The translations under genes were made by a program, and so were the position numbers. DNA of 36,611 nucleotides, taken from the IMG/VR virus record IMGVR_UViG_2537561930_000005, one strand, 5' to 3'. This document shows, in pieces, positions 83-36,006 of this stretch; positions within the stretch are counted from its first letter, which is position 1, and each line of letters opens with the position of its first letter. The DNA is from a virus (lineage: Duplodnaviria; Heunggongvirae; Uroviricota; Caudoviricetes). The notes beneath the pieces are model-generated. The model searched no databases and was not told the origin of the DNA. It was given only the letters and a program-made list of their open reading frames with translations.

Positions 83-1984
83 ATGAGCAAAGTAAAAATC
101 GGTGAATTAATAAACTCACTTGTTAGCGATGTTGAGTCAATAGATAACTCTGACCGTCCTCAAGGGGAGAAAACAAAAAAAATAAAGGCTGTTGCATTAA
201 AATTTAAAAATGCATTATTTAATGACAAGCGAAAGTTTAGGGGGAAAGGATTAGAAAAAAGAATTACAGCCAACACATTCAATGCCTATATGAGCAGGGC
301 CAGAAAACGGTTTGATGATAAACTTCATCATAGCTTTGAAAAAAATATACATCGCCTATCTGAAAAGTATCCTTTATATAATGAGGAGCTATTGTCATGG
401 CTTTCTCTACCTGCTGCCGATATTCGCCAGAGAATGTCAGCTTTACAGGCAAAATTAAAATTAATTCTCCCTCTATCAGAAGATTTATCTAATATCAGAA
501 TTGGCGATAACAAAAGTCATAATAAGTTATTGAAATTATCAAATAAATATAAAGAGTGGCAATTCGCCATTTCTGATTTAACTAGCGATAACTGGAAAGA
601 TAAGCGCGATTATTTATATAAATTACTACAGCAAGGATCTGCCTTACTTGAGGAGTTGAATCAGCTAAAAGTTAACCATGAGATTCTCTATCATCTTCAA
701 CTAAGCCCTGCCGAACGTGCATCTATCCAGCAACGATGGGCGGACGTTCTGCACAATAAGAAACGTAACGTGGTGGTCATTGATTACCCTAAATATATGC
801 AAGCTATTTACGATATTATAAATAGCCCTGCTACATTAAATAATCTAAACACTCGTTCAGGTATGGCTCCTTTGGCATTTGCACTTGCTGCATTGTCAGG
901 AAGACGAATGATTGAGATTATGTATCAAGGTACATTTACTGTTTCTGGTAAGTATACCGTTGATTTTTTAGGCCAAGCTAAAAAAAGAACTTCTGATGAT
1001 ATAACCAGAAAAATATATACATTATGCGAAGCAAAAACATTTGTTTATTTAATAAATGTACTTCGCTCATGCCCAGCAGCATCTGATTTTGATGATGTCG
1101 TTAAAGGTTATGGAGATAACGACACACGCTCTGAAAACGGACGTATTAATGCCATATTAGCAAAGGCTTTTAACCCGTGGGTTAAATCATTTTTCAAAGA
1201 TGACCGCCGTGTTTATAAAGATAGTCGTGCTATTTATGCCCGTATTGCGTATGAAATGTTTTTCCGCGTAGATCCTCGTTGGAAAAACGTAGATGAAGAT
1301 GTTTTCTTTATGGAAATTTTAGGCCATGACGATGAAAACACTCAATTACACTATAAGCAATTCAAGCTGGCCAACTTCTCAAAGACATGGAGGCCAAATA
1401 CTGGAAACGAAAATACCAGGCTGGAAGCATTGCAGCAGCTTGATGACGAAATGCCTGGATTCGCCAGAGGAGATGCCGGGGTTCGTCTGCATAACACAGT
1501 TAAGCAGCTGGTAGAGCAGGACCCCTCTATAAAAATCACGAACAGCACTCTAAGAGCGTTCAAATTTAGCCCAACAATGATTAGTCGATACCTGGAATTT
1601 GCTGCTGATGCTCTGGGGCAATTTGTTGGCGAAAACGGACAATGGCAACTGAAAATAGATACTCCAGAAATCGTTATGCCTGACGAAGAAGAACTGGAAG
1701 CAATACCTGAACTGGCGGATGAATTGTCAGAGGATGACGATCTGGATGACGACGAAATTGAGATAGAGGAAGAGGAAGAGGAAGAGGAAGAGAGCGTAGA
1801 AGAACAGCAACCGCCTGCACCTTCTTCGCCTGTATCTAAGCCGGTATTTAAGCCGGTGAGAAATATTGGTGATGGCTCATACGTTGTTGAGTTTCATTAT
1901 AATGGCCAGAATTATGCGTGGTCCGGCAGTGCAAACAGCCCCATGTCAGCAATGCAGTTAGCATGGCTGACATATTTCGGTTAA
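83..1984 (+). CDS. telN: Protelomerase (telomere resolvase), TelN/TelK-like, 633 aa
   Basis: ATG at 83 preceded by RBS AGGAGAGG (71-78). The protein has the N-terminal MSKVKIGELIN... and tyrosine-recombinase-like core I recall for N15 TelN / phiKO2 TelK, plus a C-terminal acidic tract. Length is close to the ~630 aa of TelN. Confidence 0.8.
   Translation: MSKVKIGELINSLVSDVESIDNSDRPQGEKTKKIKAVALKFKNALFNDKRKFRGKGLEKRITANTFNAYMSRARKRFDDKLHHSFEKNIHRLSEKYPLYNEELLSWLSLPAADIRQRMSALQAKLKLILPLSEDLSNIRIGDNKSHNKLLKLSNKYKEWQFAISDLTSDNWKDKRDYLYKLLQQGSALLEELNQLKVNHEILYHLQLSPAERASIQQRWADVLHNKKRNVVVIDYPKYMQAIYDIINSPATLNNLNTRSGMAPLAFALAALSGRRMIEIMYQGTFTVSGKYTVDFLGQAKKRTSDDITRKIYTLCEAKTFVYLINVLRSCPAASDFDDVVKGYGDNDTRSENGRINAILAKAFNPWVKSFFKDDRRVYKDSRAIYARIAYEMFFRVDPRWKNVDEDVFFMEILGHDDENTQLHYKQFKLANFSKTWRPNTGNENTRLEALQQLDDEMPGFARGDAGVRLHNTVKQLVEQDPSIKITNSTLRAFKFSPTMISRYLEFAADALGQFVGENGQWQLKIDTPEIVMPDEEELEAIPELADELSEDDDLDDDEIEIEEEEEEEEESVEEQQPPAPSSPVSKPVFKPVRNIGDGSYVVEFHYNGQNYAWSGSANSPMSAMQLAWLTYFG
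1766..1794 (+). repeat. (GAGGAA)n hexamer tract inside telN encoding a poly-Glu linker
   Basis: Direct read: gaggaagaggaagaggaagaggaagag, in frame, encoding EEEEEEEEE. Confidence 0.9.
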
Positions 1985-3918: not shown

Positions 3919-5151
3919 TTAGTGGGTGACGGCTGATTGCTCAGCGTCTGGTTCCTGCTTCAACGGGCGGTCTGACTGCACCGTCCCTCCACAGGCAAGT
4001 ACGGCGTGCCCCGCCGCTAAAATGTTGCGAGCGCCGTTTACATCGGCGTTCGCTGTATATCCACAAGCCCGACACACGAATTTACTTTGTGTCAGGCGGT
4101 TTTCTTTCGCTGTATGACCACAGCACGCGCAACGCTGGCTTGTGTACGCTGGCGGAACAGCAAGCACCTGACCACCACGCCAGAGCTGCTTATACTCAAG
4201 CTGGCGGCGCATTTCATACCAGCCCTGATCCAGTATCGAACGGTTTAAACCTGATTTTGCCCGAACATTGCGCCCCGGTTGGCTGACCGTACCCGCTGCT
4301 GACTTTGACATGTTGCTGACCTTCAAATCCTCAATGACTATCATTGCGTGGTTTTTGCTGATGATCGTTGTGACTTTATGAAGGTAGTCTCTGCGGATAT
4401 TTGCGATACGGGAATGCAGACACTGTATTTTGCGTTTCTGCTTCTGCCAGTTGTTGCTGAATTTGACCCTGCGGCTTAACTGTCGCTGAAGTCTCGCCAG
4501 CTTCTTCTGGTTTTTCTGAAAACTGTTTACAGGTTCAAAGACTGTGCCATCTGACAGCGTGGCGAGTTTAGCCACGCCAGCATCCAGACCGACTATCGTT
4601 GTGCTTGTGTGATTTGGTTCTGCCGTTTCAACTTCAACCTGAAACGAGATATACCACTGTCCCGCTAACTGACTGATTGTCGCATTTTTGATTTTACCGT
4701 TCACACGTTGAGATTGCCGGAATTTTACCCACCCAAGACCTGACGGTAGCTTCACTCTGCGATTTTCAAGGCAGCAATATTTCTCAAAGTTCACAAAACG
4801 GATTGAGTCTCTTCCCTCATTTTTTCGTTTCCATACCGGAGCCTTAGCTGCGAGCTTTTTATCAAAACAACGTTTCCATGCGGTATGCAGGTCTTTCAGC
4901 TTTTGTTGCAGATTGTCGGTATAAGCATGCTGTAAGAAGATGTATTCCGGCATTTTTTTCCACACTGTAATCATCCGGTTCAACTCGAAAGCCGAAGGTA
5001 ACTTTTCGCCTGAGCCAAGTATGCGCTTTGTCTCCGCAAGACCTAAATTCCAGACAAAACGGGCGCAACCACATAACTGCCGCAAACGCTGCGACTGTTC
5101 ATGCGTTGGTTCCAGTCTGAATTTGTAGGCTTTCAGGATTAGCATCATCAT
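3919..5151 (-). CDS. tnpB: TnpB (OrfB) RNA-guided nuclease, 410 aa
   Basis: C-terminal zinc-finger CxxC...CxxC (CACCGH...CRACGY) and RuvC-like region typical of IS605 OrfB; adjacent to tnpA. Confidence 0.8.
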
Positions 5152-5203: not shown

Positions 5204-5608
5204 ATGCAAAAATACAAAATCAATCGTTCAAGACATGCTGCCTTCCTTTTGCATGTTCATCTTGTCTTTGTAACAAAATACCGTCGAAAGATACTGGGAG
5301 AGTTACACTGTGCAGCATTCCATCAGTATGCAGCAGAAGTCTGCCGTGATTTTGGGGCAGAACTTAAAGAAAGTAACGGAGACGTCGATCATGTCCACAT
5401 GCTGATCGAATACCCACCAACAGTGCAGCTTTCGGTACTGGTTAACTCACTGAAAGCAGTGACATCCCGCCGTCTGCGAAACGAATTTCTTGATTTGCGG
5501 GGGGCATACGGAAAAGCCGTGCTCTGGTCGAGGTCATACTTTGCTGGCTCCTGCGGAGGTGCGCCGCTGGAAGTTGTGAAGCAATATATTCAACATCAGC
5601 GAGGCTGA
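5204..5608 (+). CDS. tnpA: IS200-type Y1 (HUH) transposase TnpA, 134 aa
   Basis: HUH motif (HVHMLIEYPP) and conserved IS200 TnpA length and architecture. Confidence 0.85.
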   Translation: MQKYKINRSRHAAFLLHVHLVFVTKYRRKILGELHCAAFHQYAAEVCRDFGAELKESNGDVDHVHMLIEYPPTVQLSVLVNSLKAVTSRRLRNEFLDLRGAYGKAVLWSRSYFAGSCGGAPLEVVKQYIQHQRG

Positions 5609-5680
5609 GCACCCTTCGGGCTTTTCAAGCCCGTCCAAATTCCCCTCCCGCCTTATGTCGGCGGGAGTACCCTTTGGAAG

Positions 5681-5968
5681 TTAAGATGGTAGACGGTTGC
5701 CCTCGATGTAGAGATTCAGTTCATACTTCGTCTCCGGGTTTTCCTTGTCGGCTCGTTCCCAACGCTCAGCAGCCTCACGCGCCAATAATTCCACTGCTTT
5801 CAGATAATCCTCCGTACGGAACCAGCCAAAGATAAGGCCACGATCTGTTACAGCCCAGGCAACCTTTTTTTCTTCCTCCTGGATAGCCTTAATGCGTCGA
5901 TCGCATTCATCCCGGCAAAACTGCAGCTGACGGTAATCAAGTTTGTCCAAAAATGCAGTAGTAGACAT
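5681..5968 (-). CDS. Hypothetical protein (95 aa) downstream of repA
   Basis: ORF on the repA strand; no recognised domain. Confidence 0.35.
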   Translation of the reverse strand: MSTTAFLDKLDYRQLQFCRDECDRRIKAIQEEEKKVAWAVTDRGLIFGWFRTEDYLKAVELLAREAAERWERADKENPETKYELNLYIEGNRLPS

Positions 5969-5972
5969 ATTT

Positions 5973-6164
5973 TTACTCCCCGTTCACCGAAAAATCACGA
6001 TAGAAACGTTTCCACATACGATAAGTCTGCGCGAGTTGTTCACCACGAAACATCGCCTTCCTGGCCTTCATGTTTTCCTTGTGAGACTTTCGATCTATGA
6101 ACCAAAACCATTGCTGGAACACACAAAGCAAGAGACACAAAGATAATATCCACTGATTACCCAT
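5973..6164 (-). CDS. Small membrane protein (63 aa, MGNQWILSLCLLLCVFQQWFWFI...)
   Basis: ATG at 6164 lies 2 nt upstream of the repA TAA stop (ATGGGTAA), suggesting translational coupling. One clear hydrophobic helix. Confidence 0.3.
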   Translation of the reverse strand: MGNQWILSLCLLLCVFQQWFWFIDRKSHKENMKARKAMFRGEQLAQTYRMWKRFYRDFSVNGE

Positions 6165-9100
6165 AGAAAGCGCCCTGCTCTTCGTAGCTGCATGGGCTAT
6201 TCCCGGTAATGTATTCACGTAACCGCCGCAGTTCATTGCTGGATAAGTGATCCATGAACTCTGTGAGGTACAGAGATGCAAACGTCATAGCTATGCTGGC
6301 TGATGACCATGATGACATAGTGGCCAGCTCCTCACCGGAAAGCGCACTCATCGCCCAGGACTCAGGTACAACCACTGGCAACACAGCCAAAGCCTCAGAA
6401 ATTACTGAATGAGGGGCGTTTTGAACCTGCTCGTTTGTGGATCGCGTTTTATCATCCATATATATATTGAGATCCAAATCGCGATCCATTTCGATGGCGG
6501 TCTTCTCGGCTTTACGCGTTTTCAGGGTTAGGCCATCTTTCTGACGCTGAGCAAGAATATCCAGCATAAATGCCGCTGATTCAGGCTCAACAAAACGCAA
6601 GGTTGGACGCTTATCGCCGTCTCTGCCGCGACGTTTACCTGTTTTAAGGCCAAGAGAGTCGCAAATGTTTTTAAACAACGCTTCCGGCACTTTAGGCTTC
6701 CCTTTTGGCGTCATAAAACCACCAATGTGCAGAACGTTATTCAACAGGTCACGGCGTTCGGCTGTCATGAGGTTATCTCGAGCAAATTTGAGACGCTCCT
6801 GAGTCGCCTCGCCGGTCATAGTCTCAGGGTTGATACCGCAGTCGATAAAGTACTGCCGGAGAGTTGCTGATTTAAGCGCATAGAAACCGCGCGCCCCGAC
6901 TTCAACAGTAGGAGTAGCTTTTACCTTGTGATCGATTATTCCAGGGAATTTAGTTTTAAAGACATCATCAGCCTGCTCGCGAGTCATCGCGGTCACTACA
7001 AAATATTGCCACTGTCCCGCCTGACGGTATGCGTAGGTAAAATTGATGGCTGCTTCTTCCCGGTCGTAACGACGAGCTGTTACCTCATCTAAAAGCATTG
7101 TTTCATAGCGGCGAACTTTGTCTCGAGCACCATCGAAATAGAATTTCAGCGTGCCTTCTTCAACCGGTAGTTTCAGTTCGTTTTCAATATCCCAGCGGAC
7201 AAGTTTTGCCTGTTCTTCAAGCGTCAGCGCGCGTTTTTTTAGCAGTTCTTCACGCTCTGATTCTTGTGGAGTTTCTGTATTGAGATGCAGATCCAGTGTC
7301 TGTTCCCACACAATATCCCGCGCTTCTTTACGCAGCTCTTTACCGATATCATTCGCAGCATAATCGGTGGCCAGCGGCGATACCTTATAACCGTCGCTGT
7401 GCATGATGCAGATCATGTTGCTGGCGTAGTCGTTACGCGCAGTCGCTTCAATAGCGGCTGCTTTAATTTTCATCCTGGTAAAGTCGGTATTGGCCACCCC
7501 CATTGATATACGGTCGCCATCGAAAACGACATCCGTCAGTTCACCGTTCATACCTGCGGTAGCAAGCAATGCCTGGGCGAATGCTCGTTCTATTTTTTGC
7601 GGGTCAGTTTCACGTTTTGCACGAGCTTTATCAAAGCCGATAATAAATTCTTTTGCTGTACGGTCGCGGCGTAGCATTTGCACTGCGTCGCTGGGTACAA
7701 CTTCACCACAGAACATGCCGAAATGACGGTCAAAATGTTTTTGCTCAATCGACACGCCGGATGAAATAGACGGGCTATAAATCAGGCCGTCGTATTTTTT
7801 GACCATCTTTTTCGGTTGATTGGTAAATGCTTCAACTTCTGGCTCTGGTTTGTTTTTCTGGTTTACACACAGAAATTTCTTACCAGGAAAATGCATTCTC
7901 AGGGTGGCTGTCACATCTTCTGCAAAGGTGGAGCTGTCGGTGGCCAACATGATTTTTTCGCCATCCGATACAGCTTTCACCACCTCGGTCATGATGCGAT
8001 CTTTTTCTGTATAAAAAACCCGGATTGGCTCACCTGTTTCGCGGTTGCGAACATCAACAGGTAATTCAATTACGTGGATCTGCAGCCATGCCGGTAAACC
8101 TAGTTCTTCACGGCGTTTCATAGCCAGTTCAGCCAGGTCAACCAGCAGATCATTCGCATCAGCATCCACCATGATTGGGTGTTGTTCTGTTCTGGCCAGC
8201 GCGTCAATTAGCGTATTGAATACAGCCACCGGGTTTTCCATAGCCCGACCGGAAAGAACGGCACGTAGCCCTTGTGTGGCCTCGTCAAAGCCAAAATAGT
8301 CGTGCTGGCGCATCAACGGTTGCCAGCAGTTTTTAACAATCGAGTTTATGCAGATGGTCAGTTTACTGGCGTATGGAGCCATTTCCTGATAGCCAGGATC
8401 CTGATAGTGCAGGATATCGGCTTTTACACCTTTTCCTTCTGTCATCATTTCCCACAGGCCGCCAATAAGGGAGACACGGTGAGCAACAGAGATACCACGT
8501 TCTGAGCTATGCATTAACGGTCGTAACAATCCAGTAGATTTGCCGGAACCCATACCAGCACGGACGATGACTATCCCCTGTAGTGATTGCACGTACTTCA
8601 GGACATCATCGGTCATTACCGAAGTTTCAAAACGCTTATAGGTGATATGTTGAGGGCGTTTATTGGGATCAGTTATGCGTTCGCTGAAAGAGCGCGGAGC
8701 CTGGGCAATACGGCACTTTTTATTCAGGCGACGGGCAATGTGGTCTTTTACCGTAGCGCGATAGATATTTTCCAGTCCCATTTCACGCAGAACGATGCAG
8801 AACATGTTAAATAAATCTGACGGACTGTTAGGAACCGGACAGGTTAGCATGCCAATATCCACCGCTCTCAGCAGCTCTTTGGCAAAAGTACGACGGTTAT
8901 CCCGCTTAATTGTCTTCAGGCGGTTGAGCGTCAGAGATAGCAAATCAGTACCAGTTTTCAGGCGGTTTGCTGTTGCAAATAGTTGACGTGCTGTTTCACG
9001 AAGTCCACGTAGTTTGTGCAGGTCGTTGAAGTCACTGCACTCCATTTGCGGATCGTCTTCAAAAGTTGGATAGACGCAGCGGACATCGTTGAATTTCGAT

Positions 9101-10152
9101 AAGATTTCATAGCCAGTCCGCAGGCCGGTATTCCCTTTTCCTTCTGTGGCAGATTTCCGGTCATTATCCAGTGCGCAGGTGATTTTTGCCGCCGGGTACA
9201 TGTTTACCAGTTGTTCCACAACATGAACCATGTTGTTAGCGGATACAGCGACAACCACAGCGTCAAAGCGTTTATCTTTTTTCGTGGCAAGCCAGATGGA
9301 TGCACCAGTAGCAAAACCTTCTGTAACAGCGATGTTTTGCGCCCCTTTCAGCTCACCGATAACAAAGCAGGCACCGACGAAATCGCCGCTGGTTACTGCG
9401 CTGGTCTGGTATTTTCCACCTTGTTTGTCGATTCGCTGCCAACCCACAATACGACCATCGTAACGACCGTCCAGGTGAGCCAGAGGGATAGCCATATACG
9501 TGGTTGGCCCCCTGCTCCATTTTGCGCTGTCGTGACTGGTCACGCGACGCACATCACACGAATTAAAAACGTCACGAATACCTTTTTTAATCGCATATGG
9601 CCATGAGCCGTCTTCTGCAGGAGCATGTTCCCACGCGCTGTGAAATGCCAGCCATCCCAGCAAACGTTCATGGTCAATTTGGTTGTTTTTCAGGTCATTA
9701 ATTCGTTTTTGTTCTTCACGGCGACGACGTGCTTCGGCCTGACGTTCTATTCTTGCCCGTTCTTCTTCCGGTTGTGCGACCACGGTCGCATTATTCCGTT
9801 GTTGCTCACGGCGATATTCAGAAAACAGGAAGGAGAAACCGCTCCATGAGCCAGCATCGCTGCCTTTATGGACGAAGTTAATGAACGGGTAATCAATCCC
9901 TTTGCTGTGTTCCAGCCGGGAGTAAATTTCTACGCGTCCTTTGAGGCTCTTCTCGAGAGCTTCTGGAGATGTTTTATTGTATGAAGAGTAACGCTCAACA
10001 CCCCCGCGAGGGTTGAGTTGGATGTTGTCGGAACAGGCAGGCCAGTTGATACCAGCCATCTGTGCCAGCTCGGTTAGTTCATCCCGTGCTGCTTCAATTA
10101 GCGAGAACGGATCGCTGCCAAAGCGATCCGCATAGAAATCGTTTAATGTCAT
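6157..10152 (-). CDS. repA: Replication protein RepA, primase-helicase fusion, 1331 aa
   Basis: Giant ORF with Walker A (GMGSGKST) helicase region and N-terminal primase-like region. Size and position (divergent from telN, adjacent to cB) match N15 repA, which I recall is ~1324 aa. Confidence 0.8.
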   Translation of the reverse strand: MTLNDFYADRFGSDPFSLIEAARDELTELAQMAGINWPACSDNIQLNPRGGVERYSSYNKTSPEALEKSLKGRVEIYSRLEHSKGIDYPFINFVHKGSDAGSWSGFSFLFSEYRREQQRNNATVVAQPEEERARIERQAEARRRREEQKRINDLKNNQIDHERLLGWLAFHSAWEHAPAEDGSWPYAIKKGIRDVFNSCDVRRVTSHDSAKWSRGPTTYMAIPLAHLDGRYDGRIVGWQRIDKQGGKYQTSAVTSGDFVGACFVIGELKGAQNIAVTEGFATGASIWLATKKDKRFDAVVVAVSANNMVHVVEQLVNMYPAAKITCALDNDRKSATEGKGNTGLRTGYEILSKFNDVRCVYPTFEDDPQMECSDFNDLHKLRGLRETARQLFATANRLKTGTDLLSLTLNRLKTIKRDNRRTFAKELLRAVDIGMLTCPVPNSPSDLFNMFCIVLREMGLENIYRATVKDHIARRLNKKCRIAQAPRSFSERITDPNKRPQHITYKRFETSVMTDDVLKYVQSLQGIVIVRAGMGSGKSTGLLRPLMHSSERGISVAHRVSLIGGLWEMMTEGKGVKADILHYQDPGYQEMAPYASKLTICINSIVKNCWQPLMRQHDYFGFDEATQGLRAVLSGRAMENPVAVFNTLIDALARTEQHPIMVDADANDLLVDLAELAMKRREELGLPAWLQIHVIELPVDVRNRETGEPIRVFYTEKDRIMTEVVKAVSDGEKIMLATDSSTFAEDVTATLRMHFPGKKFLCVNQKNKPEPEVEAFTNQPKKMVKKYDGLIYSPSISSGVSIEQKHFDRHFGMFCGEVVPSDAVQMLRRDRTAKEFIIGFDKARAKRETDPQKIERAFAQALLATAGMNGELTDVVFDGDRISMGVANTDFTRMKIKAAAIEATARNDYASNMICIMHSDGYKVSPLATDYAANDIGKELRKEARDIVWEQTLDLHLNTETPQESEREELLKKRALTLEEQAKLVRWDIENELKLPVEEGTLKFYFDGARDKVRRYETMLLDEVTARRYDREEAAINFTYAYRQAGQWQYFVVTAMTREQADDVFKTKFPGIIDHKVKATPTVEVGARGFYALKSATLRQYFIDCGINPETMTGEATQERLKFARDNLMTAERRDLLNNVLHIGGFMTPKGKPKVPEALFKNICDSLGLKTGKRRGRDGDKRPTLRFVEPESAAFMLDILAQRQKDGLTLKTRKAEKTAIEMDRDLDLNIYMDDKTRSTNEQVQNAPHSVISEALAVLPVVVPESWAMSALSGEELATMSSWSSASIAMTFASLYLTEFMDHLSSNELRRLREYITGNSPCSYEEQGAFYG
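6436..6490. other. Candidate internal replication origin element within the 3' part of repA
   Basis: Inverted repeat GGATCGCG (6439-6446) / CGCGATCC (6480-6487) flanking an AT-rich spacer containing TATATATAT; three GATC sites within ~50 bp. Confidence 0.3.
9775..9790. other. sopC-like partition (centromere) site copy 1, TGCGACCACGGTCGCA, inside repA
   Basis: 16-bp element with 7-bp inverted arms around AC. Exact 16-mer is repeated at 12218 and 16512. Differs at 2 positions from the F SopB-binding core TGGGACCACGGTCCCA as I recall it. Confidence 0.6.
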
Positions 10153-10273
10153 TTTTTAGCCATTCCATGCGAATTATGTTTTTTCGGGTTGAAAAAATCC
10201 GCAGGAGCAGCCACAATAAACGCATCTTGAATTGACGGAATCCGTCGCTTTGTTGTGGCTGCTTCCTGAAAAG

Positions 10274-10303
10274 GACCCGAGTTTGCCGACTCGGGTTTTT
10301 TTT
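10274..10303 (+). terminator. Rho-independent terminator (stem CCCGAGT/ACTCGGG, loop TTGCCG, T8)
   Basis: Direct read: perfect 7-bp GC-rich stem followed by 8 T on the plus strand, between repA start and cB end. May also act on the minus strand. Confidence 0.6.
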
Positions 10304-12007: not shown

Positions 12008-12260
12008 ACAAGTTATGTTCAGGAAACCGTCGAAGCCAGAATTAAGGTATTCGGGGGTAAGAAATGAATATGTCATCTGGTGTCCAACTTGCGGTTACAG
12101 GACACGACCCGATAGTAATAAGCAGTCTGTAATTGCCGATTGGTATTTATCAAATCAGCCAGGTAATAAGCATATAGAAAATCTTTGGATTAAGCGTTAT
12201 CTGGAAATTAGAGAGGGTGCGACCACGGTCGCACAAGAAAATGAAAATAACGCCATTTAA
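11940..12260 (+). CDS. Small zinc-ribbon protein (CxC...CPTCG), possibly Lar-like
   Basis: Cys pairs CLC and CPTCGY. The ATG at 11940 overlaps the Q-like gene; alternative start at 12015. Confidence 0.3.
   Translation: MRRRSAVKSSNAIGQEVPFCLCKQVMFRKPSKPELRYSGVRNEYVIWCPTCGYRTRPDSNKQSVIADWYLSNQPGNKHIENLWIKRYLEIREGATTVAQENENNAI
12218..12233. other. sopC-like partition site copy 2 (TGCGACCACGGTCGCA)
   Basis: Exact repeat of the 16-mer at 9775; lies within the 3' end of the zinc-ribbon ORF. Confidence 0.6.
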
Positions 12261-16511: not shown

Positions 16512-16527
16512 TGCGACCACGGTCGCA
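16512..16527. other. sopC-like partition site copy 3 (TGCGACCACGGTCGCA)
   Basis: Exact 16-mer, intergenic, 7 nt after the stop of the upstream gene. Confidence 0.6.
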
Positions 16528-16680: not shown

Positions 16681-16772
16681 GGTCAACCCATGCCAGAGCT
16701 ATAGGCTGAACCTAAAGCCCACCCGCGATGCGCATCGCCGGGTTAGCTTACCCAGGCAAAAAAATAATAGCT

Positions 16773-17849
16773 ATGTTCAAAACCACTAATATTCATGGCG
16801 CGCAACTCGTTTGCGCAGATTCTCTGCAATTTATCAAAACCATCCCTGATAACTCGGTCAATTTGATTGCAACAGACCCACCATACTTCGGCGTAAAGGC
16901 TAACGCATGGGATAACCAGTGGGATAGCGATGCTGACTTTTTGGGGTGGATTGACGAATTTTTGGCAGAATTTTGGCGGATATTGGCCCCTAATGGCAGC
17001 CTGTATATGTTTACCGGCTCTCGCCTTGCGTCAAAAATTGAATTATTAACTCGCGACCGTTTCAATGTTCTGAACCATATCATTTGGGCTAAACCCAGTG
17101 GTATGTGGCGCGGTTGTCATAAAGAAAGTTTAAGGGCTTATTTTCCTGCTACTGAAAGAATATTATTTGCAGAGCATTACGGCGCGTCAGGTTATGCGAA
17201 AGGTCAGTCAGGTTATGCTTCAAAATGTGCAGATTTAAGAAAAAATATTTTTTCTCCACTAATTGATGCTTTTTCGCTGGCTCGCCGTCAGTTAGATATA
17301 TCAGCCGCAGACATTAATTCAGCGACAGGAAAGCAGATGTGTTCACACTGGTTTTCTTATTCGCAGTGGCGGCTTCCATCATTAATTGATTTTAATAAAC
17401 TATGCGAATTATTTCGCAGGAAGGCAGATTCACTCGGTGTCCAGTGTCCATATCCTTTTAATGTTGATTATTCAGAACATGAAAAGCGTTATAGCGATCT
17501 GAAATTACATTATGAGGAAGTAAAGAAGCAGTATGATGATTTGAAGGTGCAGTATGAAAATTTACGCCGTCCATTTCATGTTACTGCTGATGTACCTTAT
17601 ACCGATGTATGGGAGTTTCCTCCTGTGCAATATTATCCTGGCAAGCACCCATGTGAAAAACCTGCAGCGATGATGGAACATATTATAAAGAGTAGTTCAC
17701 GCCCCGGAGATATCGTTGCCGATTTCTTTATGGGATCAGGCTCAACTATTAAAGCTGCGCTGAAGTTAGGACGTCAGGCAATAGGTATTGAGATTGAGAG
17801 CGAACGTTATCTTCAGACAGTTGATGAAGTGAAAAAGTTATTTGAGTAA
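16773..17849 (+). CDS. Orphan DNA methyltransferase (N6-adenine/N4-cytosine class, DPPY motif), ~358 aa
   Basis: Motif IV DPPY followed later by motif I FFMGSGST. No adjacent restriction endonuclease gene. Start uncertain (16728 or 16773). Confidence 0.75.
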   Translation: MFKTTNIHGAQLVCADSLQFIKTIPDNSVNLIATDPPYFGVKANAWDNQWDSDADFLGWIDEFLAEFWRILAPNGSLYMFTGSRLASKIELLTRDRFNVLNHIIWAKPSGMWRGCHKESLRAYFPATERILFAEHYGASGYAKGQSGYASKCADLRKNIFSPLIDAFSLARRQLDISAADINSATGKQMCSHWFSYSQWRLPSLIDFNKLCELFRRKADSLGVQCPYPFNVDYSEHEKRYSDLKLHYEEVKKQYDDLKVQYENLRRPFHVTADVPYTDVWEFPPVQYYPGKHPCEKPAAMMEHIIKSSSRPGDIVADFFMGSGSTIKAALKLGRQAIGIEIESERYLQTVDEVKKLFE

Positions 17850-27770: not shown

Positions 27771-28167
27771 ATGACGAAAGATGAACTGATTGCCCGTCTT
27801 CAGGAGCTGGGTGAGCAACTGAACCGCGATGTCAGCCTGACGGGAACGAAAGAAGAACTGGCGCTTCGTGTGGCAGAGCTGGAAGAAGAGCTTGATGACA
27901 CGGATGAAACTGCCGGTCAGGACACCCCTCTCAGCCGGGAAAATGTGCTGACCGGGCATGAAAATGAGGTGGTATCAGCGCAGCCGGATACCGTGACAGG
28001 ATACGGCTGAACTAGTCACGGTTGTGGCACTGGTGACGCTGCATACTGATGCACTTCACGCCACGCGGGATGAGGCTGTGGCATTTGTGCTGCCGGGAAC
28101 GGCGTTTCGTGTCTCTGCCGGTGTGGCAGCTGAAATGACAGAGCGCGGCCTGGCCAGAATGCAATAA
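27771..28167 (+). pseudogene. FI: FI (DNA-packaging/head assembly) disrupted by an apparent frameshift
   Basis: FI frame from ATG 27771 stops at TGA 28008-28010 after 79 codons. A different frame (open from 27997, stop at 28165) encodes ...DTAELVTVVALVTLHTDALHATRDEAVAFVLPGTAFRVSAGVAAEMTERGLARMQ, the expected FI C-terminus, with no start of its own. Confidence 0.6.
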
Positions 28168-29521: not shown

Positions 29522-30262
29522 ATGCCTGTACCAAATCCTGTAATGCCGGTGAAAGGTGCCGGGACCACCCTGTGGGTTTATAAGGGGAGCGGTGACCCTT
29601 ATGCGAACCCGCTTTCAGACGTTGACTGGTCGCGTCTGGCAAAAGTTAAAGACCTGACGCCCGGCGAACTGACCGCTGAGTCCTATGACGACAGCTATCT
29701 CGATGATGAAGATGCAGACTGGACTGCGACCGGGCAGGGGCAGAAATCTGCCGGAGATACCAGCTTCACGCTGGCGTGGATGCCCGGAGAGCAGGGGCAG
29801 CAGGCGCTGCTGGCGTGGTTTAATGAAGGTGATACCCGTGCCTATAAAATCCGCTTCCCGAACGGCACGGTCGATGTGTTCCGCGGCTGGGTCAGCAGTA
29901 TCGGTAAGGCGGTGACGGCGAAGGAAGTGATTACCCGCACGGTGAAAGTCACCAACGTAGGACGTCCGTCGATGGCAGAAGATCGCAGCACGGTAACAGC
30001 GGCAACCGGCATGACCGTGACGCCTGCCAGCACCTCGGTGGTGAAAGGGCAGAGCACGACGCTGACCGTGGCATTCCAGCCGGAAGGCGCAACCGACAAG
30101 AGCTTCCGTGCGGTGTCTGCGGATAAAACAAAAGCCACCGTGTCGGTCAGTGGTATGACCATCACCGTGAAAGGTGTTGCTGCAGGCAAGGTCAACATTC
30201 CGGTCGTATCCGGTAATGGTGAGTTTGCTGCGGTTGCAGAAATCAACGTCACCGCCAGTTAA
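29522..30262 (+). CDS. V: Major tail tube protein V (246 aa, C-terminal Ig-like domain)
   Basis: [20 protein letters not shown]...; 246 aa as in lambda gpV. Confidence 0.95.
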
Positions 30263-35437: not shown

Positions 35438-36006
35438 AAACGGGGGCTGAAGCCATCCGGGCACTGGCCACACAGCTCCCGGCGTTTCGTCAGAAACTGA
35501 GCGACGGCTGGTATCAGGTACGGATTGCCGGGCGGGACGTCAGCACGTCCGGGTTAACGGCGCAGTTACATGAGACTCTGCCTGATGGCGCTGTGATTCA
35601 TATTGTTCCCAGAGTCGCCGGGGCCAAGTCAGGTGGCGTATTCCAGATTGTCCTGGGGGCTGCCGCCATTGCCGGATCATTCTTTACCGCCGGGGCCACC
35701 CTTGCAGCATGGGGGGCAGCCATTGGGGCCGGTGGTATGACCGGCATCCTGTTTTCTCTCGGTGCCAGTATGGTGCTCGGTGGTGTGGCGCAGATGCTGG
35801 CACCGAAAGCCAGAACTCCCCGTACACAGACAACGGATAACGGTAAGCAGAACACCTATTTCTCCTCACTGGATAACATGGTTGCCCAGGGCAATGTTCT
35901 GCCTGTTCTGTACGGGGAAATGCGCGTGGGGTCTCGCGTGGTTTCTCAGGAGATCAGCACGGCAGACGAAGGGGACGGTGGTCAGGTTGTGGTGATTGGT
36001 CGCTGA
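35335..36006 (+). CDS. I: Tail tip assembly protein I (223 aa)
   Basis: Length and order as in lambda; ubiquitin-like N-terminus and Gly/Ala-rich membrane segment. Confidence 0.9.
   Translation: MAATHTLPLASPGMARICLYGDLQRFGRRIDLRVKTGAEAIRALATQLPAFRQKLSDGWYQVRIAGRDVSTSGLTAQLHETLPDGAVIHIVPRVAGAKSGGVFQIVLGAAAIAGSFFTAGATLAAWGAAIGAGGMTGILFSLGASMVLGGVAQMLAPKARTPRTQTTDNGKQNTYFSSLDNMVAQGNVLPVLYGEMRVGSRVVSQEISTADEGDGGQVVVIGR

Follow-up and report, generated by a model that had tools for sequence, protein, structure and literature searches.

The closest described counterparts of the element analysed here are the intragenic replication origins of the plasmid-prophages PY54 and N15. The PY54 origin, according to the work of Ziegelin et al. 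from 2005, reportedly occupies 212 bp in the 3' portion of repA, and it is said to depend on RepA, to work in trans, and to be independent of DnaA, DnaB and DnaG; both this study and that of Mardanov and Ravin from 2006 reportedly place the origin in the 3' part of repA. For N15, published papers place the origin within repA, where bidirectional replication begins (PMC4165912, PMC2847241), in agreement with the gene that the earlier note on this DNA had named for N15. With respect to the reach of the initiator, N15 differs from what is reported above for PY54: its RepA is reported to be active only in cis (PMC3155836), and for this reason a failure to replicate with RepA supplied in trans would be an unsafe refutation of an origin of this type. 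A similar arrangement has been described for repABC plasmids, in which oriV lies inside repC, i.e. within the initiator coding sequence, beside an A+T-rich stretch, and cis-preferential action of the initiator has been discussed for these plasmids as well as for N15; however, both the initiator protein and the replicon type are unrelated (PMC3155836).

The window, i.e. the whole stretch of 36,611 nucleotides that was analysed, can be assigned by its gene content to an N15-like telomere phage. It encodes TelN with four TelK/ResT Pfam domains, the CB-type repressor (cB), which adjoins repA, and Q, and it carries a lambda-like cos as well as three copies of a sopC-like palindrome, GCGACCACGGTCGC (the sop-type palindromes lie at 9776-9789, 12219 and 16513). 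According to tblastn comparisons, the product of repA exhibits 99.3% amino-acid identity to that of PhiR46_1, 75% to N15 gp37 and phiKO2 Gp35, and 49% to PY54 RepA. It matches the NCBIfam family CyRepA1 with 260.8 bits over aa 525-1034, the match to Pfam Toprim_3 falls below the cut-off, and we found no solved structures related to RepA by sequence. From these similarities, the gene would be classified as an N15-type repA. Residue identity in the C-terminal region of the protein is low (0.57-0.66 vs 0.86) and indels are present, which indicates that protein constraint is relaxed at the RepA C-terminus.

The earlier note had described an inverted repeat around an AT-rich core with three GATC sites, all inside repA, and every part of this description was recovered in its place (Table 1). 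The element is located at codons ~1222-1239 of repA, 92% along the gene. According to the repeat search, its two arms of 13 nt each pair at 12/13 positions (92% complementary) and are separated by 25 nt; GGATCGCG is found at 6439-6446, CGCGATCC at 6480-6487 and TATATATAT at 6459-6467, and the GATC sites start at 6440, 6471 and 6483. Nowhere in repA is the duplex less stable than in the AT-rich core, whether 12, 20 or 30 stacks are considered, and the core is presumed to be the first strand-opening site. The rare codons ATA and CGA within the core exhibit no synonymous change among relatives. In the G+C-rich flanking box the per-codon synonymous differences amount to 0.00-0.11, with the exception of Pro (0.35), and a similar sequence, GCCGCCCCTGTATCAGTA, is present in a Xenorhabdus relative.

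Table 1. Features of the repA gene and of the putative origin embedded in it (positions refer to the window)
Feature	Position	Strand	Remarks
repA	6157..10152	minus	1331 codons (1331-aa ORF); primase-helicase initiator of N15/PY54 type
Zone of low synonymous variation	6403..6494		codons 1221-1250; taken as the conserved core of the putative origin
G+C-rich flanking box	6403..6420		AACGCCCCTCATTCAGTA (coding strand); shares the synonymous suppression
Left arm of dyad	6438..6450	none	TGGATCGCGTTTT; repeat search; holds outer GATC 6440-6443
AT-rich core	6447..6479	none	79% AT; (AT)5 at 6458-6467, inner GATC 6471-6474
Vestige of a fourth GATC	6453..6456	none	CATC in the window, GATC in the Klebsiella, PY54 and LSJC7 clades
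Right arm of dyad	6476..6488	none	AAATCGCGATCCA; repeat search; holds outer GATC 6483-6486

Comparison with the corresponding loci of N15 and PY54 reveals a common layout alongside differences in sequence. In N15, whose repA is orthologous (75% identity, as given above), the element occupies the same codon position (30145-30191 of the N15 genome); in the N15 record U63085 (repA), which annotates three 11-bp repeat regions at 1421-1482, the orthologous element spans 1429-1475. The window and N15 have in common GTGGATCGCGATTTGGATCT, the AT-rich centre, the CGATCCA motif and the GATC offsets 0/12/43. On the other hand, the right half of the core has diverged (ATATGGATGATAAAACG in the window vs ATACATGGTAACCCT in N15), and the dyad is much stronger in the window (12/13 pairs, z ~-3.3) than in N15 (9-10/13 pairs, z -1.1). 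The PY54 element (AJ564013, 27863-27909) shares with the window its position in repA, a 47-bp frame, outer GATC sites 43 bp apart, a centre of the ATATAGATATA type and arms with dyad symmetry (z -3.4), but it has four GATC sites (0/13/31/43, as in the LSJC7 clade; the Klebsiella clade exhibits 0/12/30/43), different arm letters (GATCTAACTTG / CAAGTTGGATC) and an unrelated encoded peptide. The stretch 6403-6494, centred on the dyad 6438-6488, is in all probability the core of the origin of the linear plasmid-prophage, and the orthologue of the one that N15 and PY54 carry within repA. The earlier proposal of an origin candidate inside repA gains support from the orthology to the N15 site, from the nucleotide constraint, and from the geometry that is kept even where the peptide is unrelated.

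The case could hardly be made from one sequence. Within the 36.6-kb window the exact 9-mer TGGATCGCG is confined to the two arms, and the element is the sole cluster of three GATC within 50 bp. A search for inverted repeats of comparable quality (arms of 13 nt with no more than 1 mismatch and a loop of 3-40) returned 16 matches at 6 places in the window, compared with 0.9 in the dinucleotide shuffles used as control, so that one such repeat is unremarkable. GATC is depleted across the window (82 sites vs 138 +/- 11 expected), and a Poisson estimate from these 82 sites in 36.6 kb yields ~0.4 expected triples, i.e. the cluster is not significant alone. With such a repeat or GATC triple expected ~0.4-0.9 times per window, the similarity might in principle be a functionless chance by-product of coding, or else mark a recent recombination tract. 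Neither the repeat nor the GATC cluster exceeds chance in this one sequence, and it is the conservation that shows the element to be non-random.

We analysed synonymous variation in 15-codon windows across 20 non-redundant N15-like repA genes. Between 6403 and 6494 it drops to 0.01-0.06 (minimum 0.014), compared with 0.381 (sd 0.082) on average over the gene, and each of the 20 lowest-scoring 15-codon windows of repA is located inside this zone. Among the codons of invariant residues, 6/8 inside the zone lack any synonymous change, compared with 86/797 outside (Fisher P=4e-5). Pairwise comparisons give the same picture: between the window and the Klebsiella-type locus L009, 0/22 same-residue codons differ inside the zone and 541/1083 outside (P=2e-7), while between the window and N15 the corresponding values are 2/17 and 56% (P=2e-4). 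In the PY54-like clade, the element is among the three spots of lowest synonymous variation in the gene. Judging from these comparisons, the element is under the strongest nucleotide-level constraint beyond coding in the whole of repA.

The layout is retained throughout the enterobacterial-type relatives of the locus. The outer GATC pair, 43 bp apart start to start, is present in 114/114 enterobacterial-type loci that reach the region, including those of the PY54 clade; this pattern occurs at a single place in the window and has 0 matches in 274 kb of control loci. In the ungapped alignment of 27 unique variants the outer GATC sites are invariant, and the central TATA(G/T)ATAT letters vary hardly or not at all between the clades. 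The encoded peptide is unrelated between clades (DRDLDLNIYMD vs DLTCGSNIDIRSQVGS), with the DNA layout kept. Of the cells in the outer arms, 79.5% pair when the arms are aligned in register, compared with 30-41% when they are slid by 1-3 columns, and double-change cells number 45 compared with 19.3 +/- 3.1 in shuffles. The arms preserve their dyad symmetry by compensatory changes, which represent only a handful of independent events, as the clades are few. In the more distant VP882/phiHAP-1 clade we found only a spot of low stability close to the 3' end of repA, and no GATC dyad. A chance by-product of coding would explain neither this geometry, nor the synonymous suppression, nor the retention of the DNA layout in the PY54 clade with its unrelated peptide. 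A recent recombination tract is contradicted by amino-acid replacements interspersed with invariant nucleotides and by the very different right half of the core in N15 and in the window. We regard both variants of this explanation as practically negligible.

Dyad symmetry preserved in this way might also reflect a constraint on the repA mRNA, namely on an RNA hairpin with an effect on its translation, stability or processing. As single-stranded DNA or RNA, the segment containing the element forms a more stable fold than its shuffles (z -3.1 to -3.6), the coding-strand RNA of 6420-6505 attains -24.6 kcal/mol (z -3.4), and the pairing of the arms is kept by compensatory changes between clades. 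However, strict invariance is found in the AT-rich "loop" and in the GATC sites, which are palindromic; an RNA stem-loop would need neither, and the fixed 43-bp spacing is a constraint typical for duplex DNA. The mismatches display no consistent strand bias, as the Klebsiella clade has A.C where the PY54 clade, read on the same strand, has T.G, and the N15 segment folds no better than shuffles. Membership in a known RNA family was rejected, with the best Rfam match scoring 19.9 bits against a threshold of 95. An RNA hairpin as the target of selection is therefore very unlikely. With dyad folding weak in N15 (see above) and in an LSJC7-type relative (z +0.25), neither of which folds better than shuffles, we also rejected a stable hairpin or cruciform as a universal conserved property of the element.

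Nucleotide constraint as such testifies to selection on DNA or RNA and leaves its purpose unspecified, and the element could also be a DNA site of another function: a site involved in copy number, incompatibility or sequestration, or an internal promoter sensitive to methylation, which would serve the small genes lying downstream of repA on the minus strand (5973-6281 and 5681-5968). Our scan also picked up other protein-binding palindromes embedded in repA that lower synonymous variation (in the N15-like clade the CGTGACCAGTCACG site, in the PY54-like clade both sopC-type positions), and the invariant GATC sites would fit a methylation-dependent switch. As regards the promoter, a consensus scan detected no sigma-70-type match in 5600-7200 and this candidate was rejected. 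The CB operators are located upstream of repA, and the sop-type palindromes differ from the element in both sequence and place (9776-9789 and 9531-9544). A centromere was rejected as well: the sop-type palindromes are different sequences located elsewhere, and the annotated site of phiKO2 maps to repA codons ~122-127. Moreover, inverted boxes around an AT-rich centre of minimal stability correspond to the anatomy of an origin, the literature puts the N15 origin in repA, and no comparably constrained candidate exists elsewhere in the gene. All this renders a DNA site of another function improbable, and leaves the origin as the preferred reading.

Several further candidates were considered. We rejected an iteron/DnaA-type theta origin, such as those of F, P1, pSC101 and R6K, as the element contains neither an iteron array nor a DnaA box. 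No tandem iteron array (at least 3 direct repeats of ~17-22 bp) was found in 5900-7200, which contains just short two-copy direct matches. The DnaA box TTATNCACA at up to 1 mismatch is absent from 6400-6500, the nearest match being at 6726, and across the window such matches number 30, compared with 27 +/- 5 expected. A search for an overlapping gene on the other strand yielded only mechanical ORFs of 35-52 aa. The minimum of the cumulative GC skew lies at ~11 kb instead of 6.45 kb, but the skew tracks the orientation of the genes and was discarded as uninformative for locating an origin.

We infer that in the present phage the element functions as the origin, with RepA binding to the boxes and with the AT-rich core as the melting site. 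According to the mechanism we propose, RepA, which combines primase, SF2-type helicase and origin-binding functions in one polypeptide, would recognise the two inverted GATC-containing boxes, open the ~25-bp AT-rich centre between them, load its own helicase in both directions, and prime. The host polymerase would then replicate bidirectionally to the hairpin telomeres, to be resolved by TelN. The putative origin occupies a stretch close to the 3' end of repA that is of low conservation and prone to indels, which argues that the DNA signal dictates the local peptide and not the reverse.

An analogous organization is known from the HSV oriS/UL9 system and, more loosely, from the SV40 core origin with large T antigen, where a short AT-rich spacer lies between inverted initiator boxes and a helicase serves as the initiator that opens it; inverted boxes flanking an AT-rich spacer, as in origins of the HSV oriS/UL9 type, are present in our element. 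As regards the initiator, RepA matches the UL9 family in Pfam (Herpes_ori_bp, PF02399) weakly but above the threshold (25.2 bits, cut-off 20), over only ~150 residues of helicase motifs (residues 522-674 vs profile positions 46-198 of 820). However, the DNA sites bear no sequence relation to the element, RepA also carries its own primase, and the element is not a member of that family.

Across all clades, strict invariance within the dyad is confined to the two GATC sites exactly 43 bp apart, i.e. about four helical turns, and to the AT centre. The inner GATC sites are usually found 12-13 and 30-31 bp from the outer ones, and the surrounding box letters, which vary between clades, presumably carry RepA specificity. 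Invariant GATC sites in phages that otherwise avoid GATC suggest a factor common to all hosts. One possible reading, which we put forward as tentative, is that host Dam methylation and SeqA gate the origin of the enterobacterial telomere phages. The Dam/SeqA-controlled origins E. coli oriC and P1 oriR likewise have GATC sites within or next to the region of unwinding, and here three such sites (four in most clades) are packed into 47 bp. Their spacings of 12-13, 30-31 and 43 bp would put them on about the same helix face (the spacing preference of SeqA was taken from PMC2691817). Unlike oriC and P1 oriR, the element possesses neither a DnaA box nor tandem iterons, and in the literature searched we found nothing on Dam/SeqA control of such origins. 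If this reading is true, sequestration of hemimethylated origins after firing could provide a once-per-cycle control of a low-copy linear prophage, as at oriC and P1 oriR.

For N15 and PY54, the location of the origin within repA is already established, and the present element is a well-supported, ordinary example. What the analysis provides is a base-level delimitation (~90 bp, 6403-6494) of the putative origin for N15-like plasmid-prophages of E. coli, Klebsiella and related genera, for which the public records annotate only the RepA protein. It also offers a clean case of a cis element that overrides coding, the DNA layout being kept where the encoded peptide has been replaced. N15-based linear cloning vectors and engineered telomere systems rely on this origin, and the invariant letters indicate what should not be recoded in them.

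The element examined here, a dyad with an AT-rich core and GATC sites, lies in the 3' part of the gene for the replication initiator RepA. In tblastn comparisons the window's RepA shares 99.3% identity with the "primase protein" of Escherichia phage PhiR46_1, 94.8% with YDC107_1, ~85% with a set of Klebsiella phage-plasmids, ~75% with N15 gp37 and phiKO2 Gp35, 49% with PY54 RepA, and ~30% with RepA of VP882 and phiHAP-1. Its central 510 residues correspond to CyRepA1 (NCBIfam), while Pfam matches include the herpesvirus origin-binding helicase family above threshold and a Toprim domain below the cut-off. The gene order around repA is that of a telomere phage as plasmid-prophage, with CB-type repressor and Q genes found in the window and, near 20.7 kb, a cos/Nu1 region like that of lambda. 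We take the segment 20640-20760, which contains a 16-nt inverted repeat (AGAAAGGAAACGACAG / CTGTCGTTTCCTTTCT), to be a close match to the left end of phage lambda upstream of Nu1; therefore the succession of telN (protelomerase), repA, immunity region, cos, and head/tail genes is the plasmid-prophage order. Just upstream of the repA start, the inverted repeat AGCAGCCACAA...TTGTGGCTGCT (about 10204-10261 and 10270-10300) probably represents the OL operators of the CB repressor and the promoter, as described for N15. A terminator-like hairpin between cB and repA matches the phiKO2 annotation, and an IS200/IS605-type insertion is placed between telN and repA. The earlier note had assumed a repA of the N15 type, correctly, because the relatives of RepA and the telomere-phage surroundings both fit.

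Coordinates of the element and neighboring features, and GATC spacing by clade
Feature	Position (nt) or offsets (bp)	Strand	Remark
Left arm of dyad	6438-6450
Right arm of dyad	6476-6488
TATATATAT	6459-6467
GATC sites of element (starts)	6440, 6471, 6483
repA	6157-10152	minus	ORF, 1331 codons
telN	83-1984		protelomerase
TnpB-like ORF	3919-5151	minus	410 aa, IS200/IS605-type pair
TnpA-like ORF	5204-5608	plus	134 aa, IS200/IS605-type pair
CGTGACCAGTCACG palindrome	9531-9544		inside repA, codons about 203-207
GCGACCACGGTCGC palindromes, three identical	9776-9789, 12219-12232, 16513-16526		resemble F/N15 sopC centromere sites
GATC, window and N15	0/12/43
GATC, Klebsiella clade	0/12/30/43
GATC, PY54 and LSJC7 clades	0/13/31/43
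GATC, Xenorhabdus	0/6/36/43
GATC, L166	0/12/37/43

The inverted repeat, AT-rich centre and three GATC sites described in that note are all present. The dyad arms, 25 nt apart, are complementary at 12/13 positions, and the 9-mer TGGATCGCG is confined in the window to these arms. The coding strand reads ATG GAT CGC GAT TTG GAT CTC AAT ATA TAT ATG GAT GAT AAA ACG CGA TCC ACA, encoding M D R D L D L N I Y M D D K T R S T. The stretch 6447-6479 is 79% AT and, at three window sizes, the least stable duplex in repA. In the window sequence alone the element is statistically unremarkable: about one inverted repeat of its quality is expected per shuffled window versus six places observed, and ~0.4 GATC triples within 50 bp are expected by chance (our estimate, given 82 GATC sites). 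Other 13-nt inverted repeats with at most one mismatch occur at three places (1943, 29171, and 35756-35759). GATC is strongly under-represented in the window (82 vs 138 +/- 11 in dinucleotide-preserving shuffles); the phage also carries a gene for an N6_N4-type DNA methyltransferase (16728-17849). The cumulative origin signal from GC skew is uninformative for the window.

We gathered repA loci from viral contigs, species genomes and phage records, built codon alignments, and calculated the frequency at which codons for the same residue differ among 20 non-redundant N15-like genes (70-98% nucleotide identity). Against a gene-wide mean of 0.381 (sd 0.082 for 15-codon windows), synonymous difference drops to 0.014 at the element, and the twenty lowest windows all begin within codons 1217-1237; after these comes the start codon (0.098). 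Per-codon suppression spans codons 1221-1250 (nt 6403-6494), where CGA for Arg and TCC for Ser, both with six-fold degeneracy, never vary, nor does ATA, a rare Ile codon. Invariant-residue codons without synonymous change make up 6/8 inside the zone vs 86/797 outside (P=4e-5). Between the window and a Klebsiella-type gene, same-residue codons differ at 0/22 inside vs 50% outside (P=2e-7), and between the window and N15 at 2/17 vs 56% (P=2e-4). Because around the element residue identity is low (0.57-0.79, overall 0.86) and indels occur in divergent RepAs, the alignments indicate that it is DNA, not protein, that is conserved. Chance or a recombination tract is an extremely improbable account of the element. 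The last codons of repA (1316-1331; 6163-6207), overlapped by an ORF in another frame (5973-6281, minus), display reduced synonymous variation (0.19).

Embedded palindromes served as positive controls. In the N15-like clade CGTGACCAGTCACG is the third-lowest synonymous spot (0.158), and at codons about 121-125 GCGACCACGGTCGC gives a slight dip only (about 0.30). The latter copy (9776-9789) lies where phiKO2 annotates a putative plasmid partitioning site. In an independent set of 12 PY54-like genes, synonymous variation is lowest at three spots: the element and both sopC-type positions. The CGTGACCAGTCACG position is a synonymous dip in this clade too; PY54 has TGGGACCGTGGTCACA there, and Xenorhabdus and LSJC7 relatives have the F-sopC-like TGGGACCACGGTCCCA. 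This position is a candidate for a second centromere-type site within repA, or for an alternative one.

The layout of the element recurs where the peptide is unrelated, as in PY54, which has GATCTAACTTGTGGATCTGATATAGATATAAGATCTCAAGTTGGATC, encoding DLTCGSDIDIRSQVGS. When 27 unique 67-mers are aligned without gaps, the invariant letters are those of both outer GATC and some in the middle of a TATA(G/T)ATAT motif; the fourth GATC position reads CATC in the window lineage. A GATC pair at 43-bp spacing around an AT-rich middle was found in 114/114 enterobacterial-type loci reaching this region; in the window it occurs at 6440 only, and 274 kb of unrelated control loci contain none. Outer-arm pairing holds in 79.5% of cells in register vs 30-41% with the partner slid by 1-3 columns, and double-sided changes number 45 vs 19 +/- 3 in shuffles, e.g. 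CGATTT/AAA(A/T)CG in N15-like genes vs TAACTTG/CAAGTTG in PY54-like genes. Since independent clade splits are few, we regard these compensatory changes as supportive of conserved dyad symmetry, not as proof. The element folds better than shuffles as either DNA strand or RNA (z -3.1 to -3.6), and strong hairpins are predicted for most clades, with N15 (z -1.1) and the LSJC7 type (z +0.25) as exceptions; arm mismatches have no consistent strand bias. An mRNA hairpin is thus a very unlikely explanation, and the comparison argues that the conserved property is symmetric boxes set at fixed spacing about a centre that melts easily, rather than a stable cruciform or RNA stem.

We consider the element to be most likely a replication origin core. 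Mardanov & Ravin 2006 reportedly located the origin of N15 in the 3' part of its repA, and Ziegelin et al. 2005 are said to have delimited the PY54 origin to 212 bp in the 3' portion of repA and to have found it trans-active, with DnaA, DnaB and DnaG not needed. The orthologous element lies at 30145-30191 in N15 and 27863-27909 in PY54; in the N15 repA record (U63085) it occupies 1429-1475, where three 11-bp repeat regions are annotated at 1421-1482. N15 RepA has been cited as acting only in cis (PMC3155836), and published accounts put the origin of N15 within repA, from which replication proceeds bidirectionally (PMC4165912, PMC2847241). Neither tandem repeats (iterons) around the element nor a DnaA box at it were found, and we therefore reject an iteron/DnaA origin. 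Centromere, promoter, overlapping-ORF and known RNA family (Rfam) readings were checked and are unsupported, and a DNA site with another function appears rather unlikely. At the putative origin, RepA would bind the inverted boxes bearing GATC, open the AT centre, load its own helicase bidirectionally, and prime; forks would then proceed to the telomeres, to be resolved by TelN. The arrangement would be analogous to HSV oriS with UL9, a dyad-symmetric viral origin worked by an origin-binding helicase. Because GATC is invariant amid changing box letters in a genome otherwise depleted of it, Dam/SeqA gating of the putative origin is conceivable, if doubtful; the spacings place the sites on approximately one helix face, as SeqA prefers (PMC2691817).

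Plasmids in 17/5426 complete E. coli genomes carry the element. Among E. coli RefSeq plasmids (22 places in 17 records), some hold the repA origin segment twice (e.g. NZ_CP014491.1, NZ_LT906558.1); a possible cause is assembly of linear hairpin plasmids into circular, head-to-head dimers. The same doubled pattern is seen in IMG/VR contigs that carry repA in two inverted copies. An origin inside repA is of a kind already known, while the window's putative copy is new and unannotated, its relatives carrying no annotation beyond primase or CyRepA1 protein. The present analysis may add, modestly, an invariant 43-bp GATC frame, a compensatory dyad, and a ~90-bp zone in which a DNA signal overrides coding.
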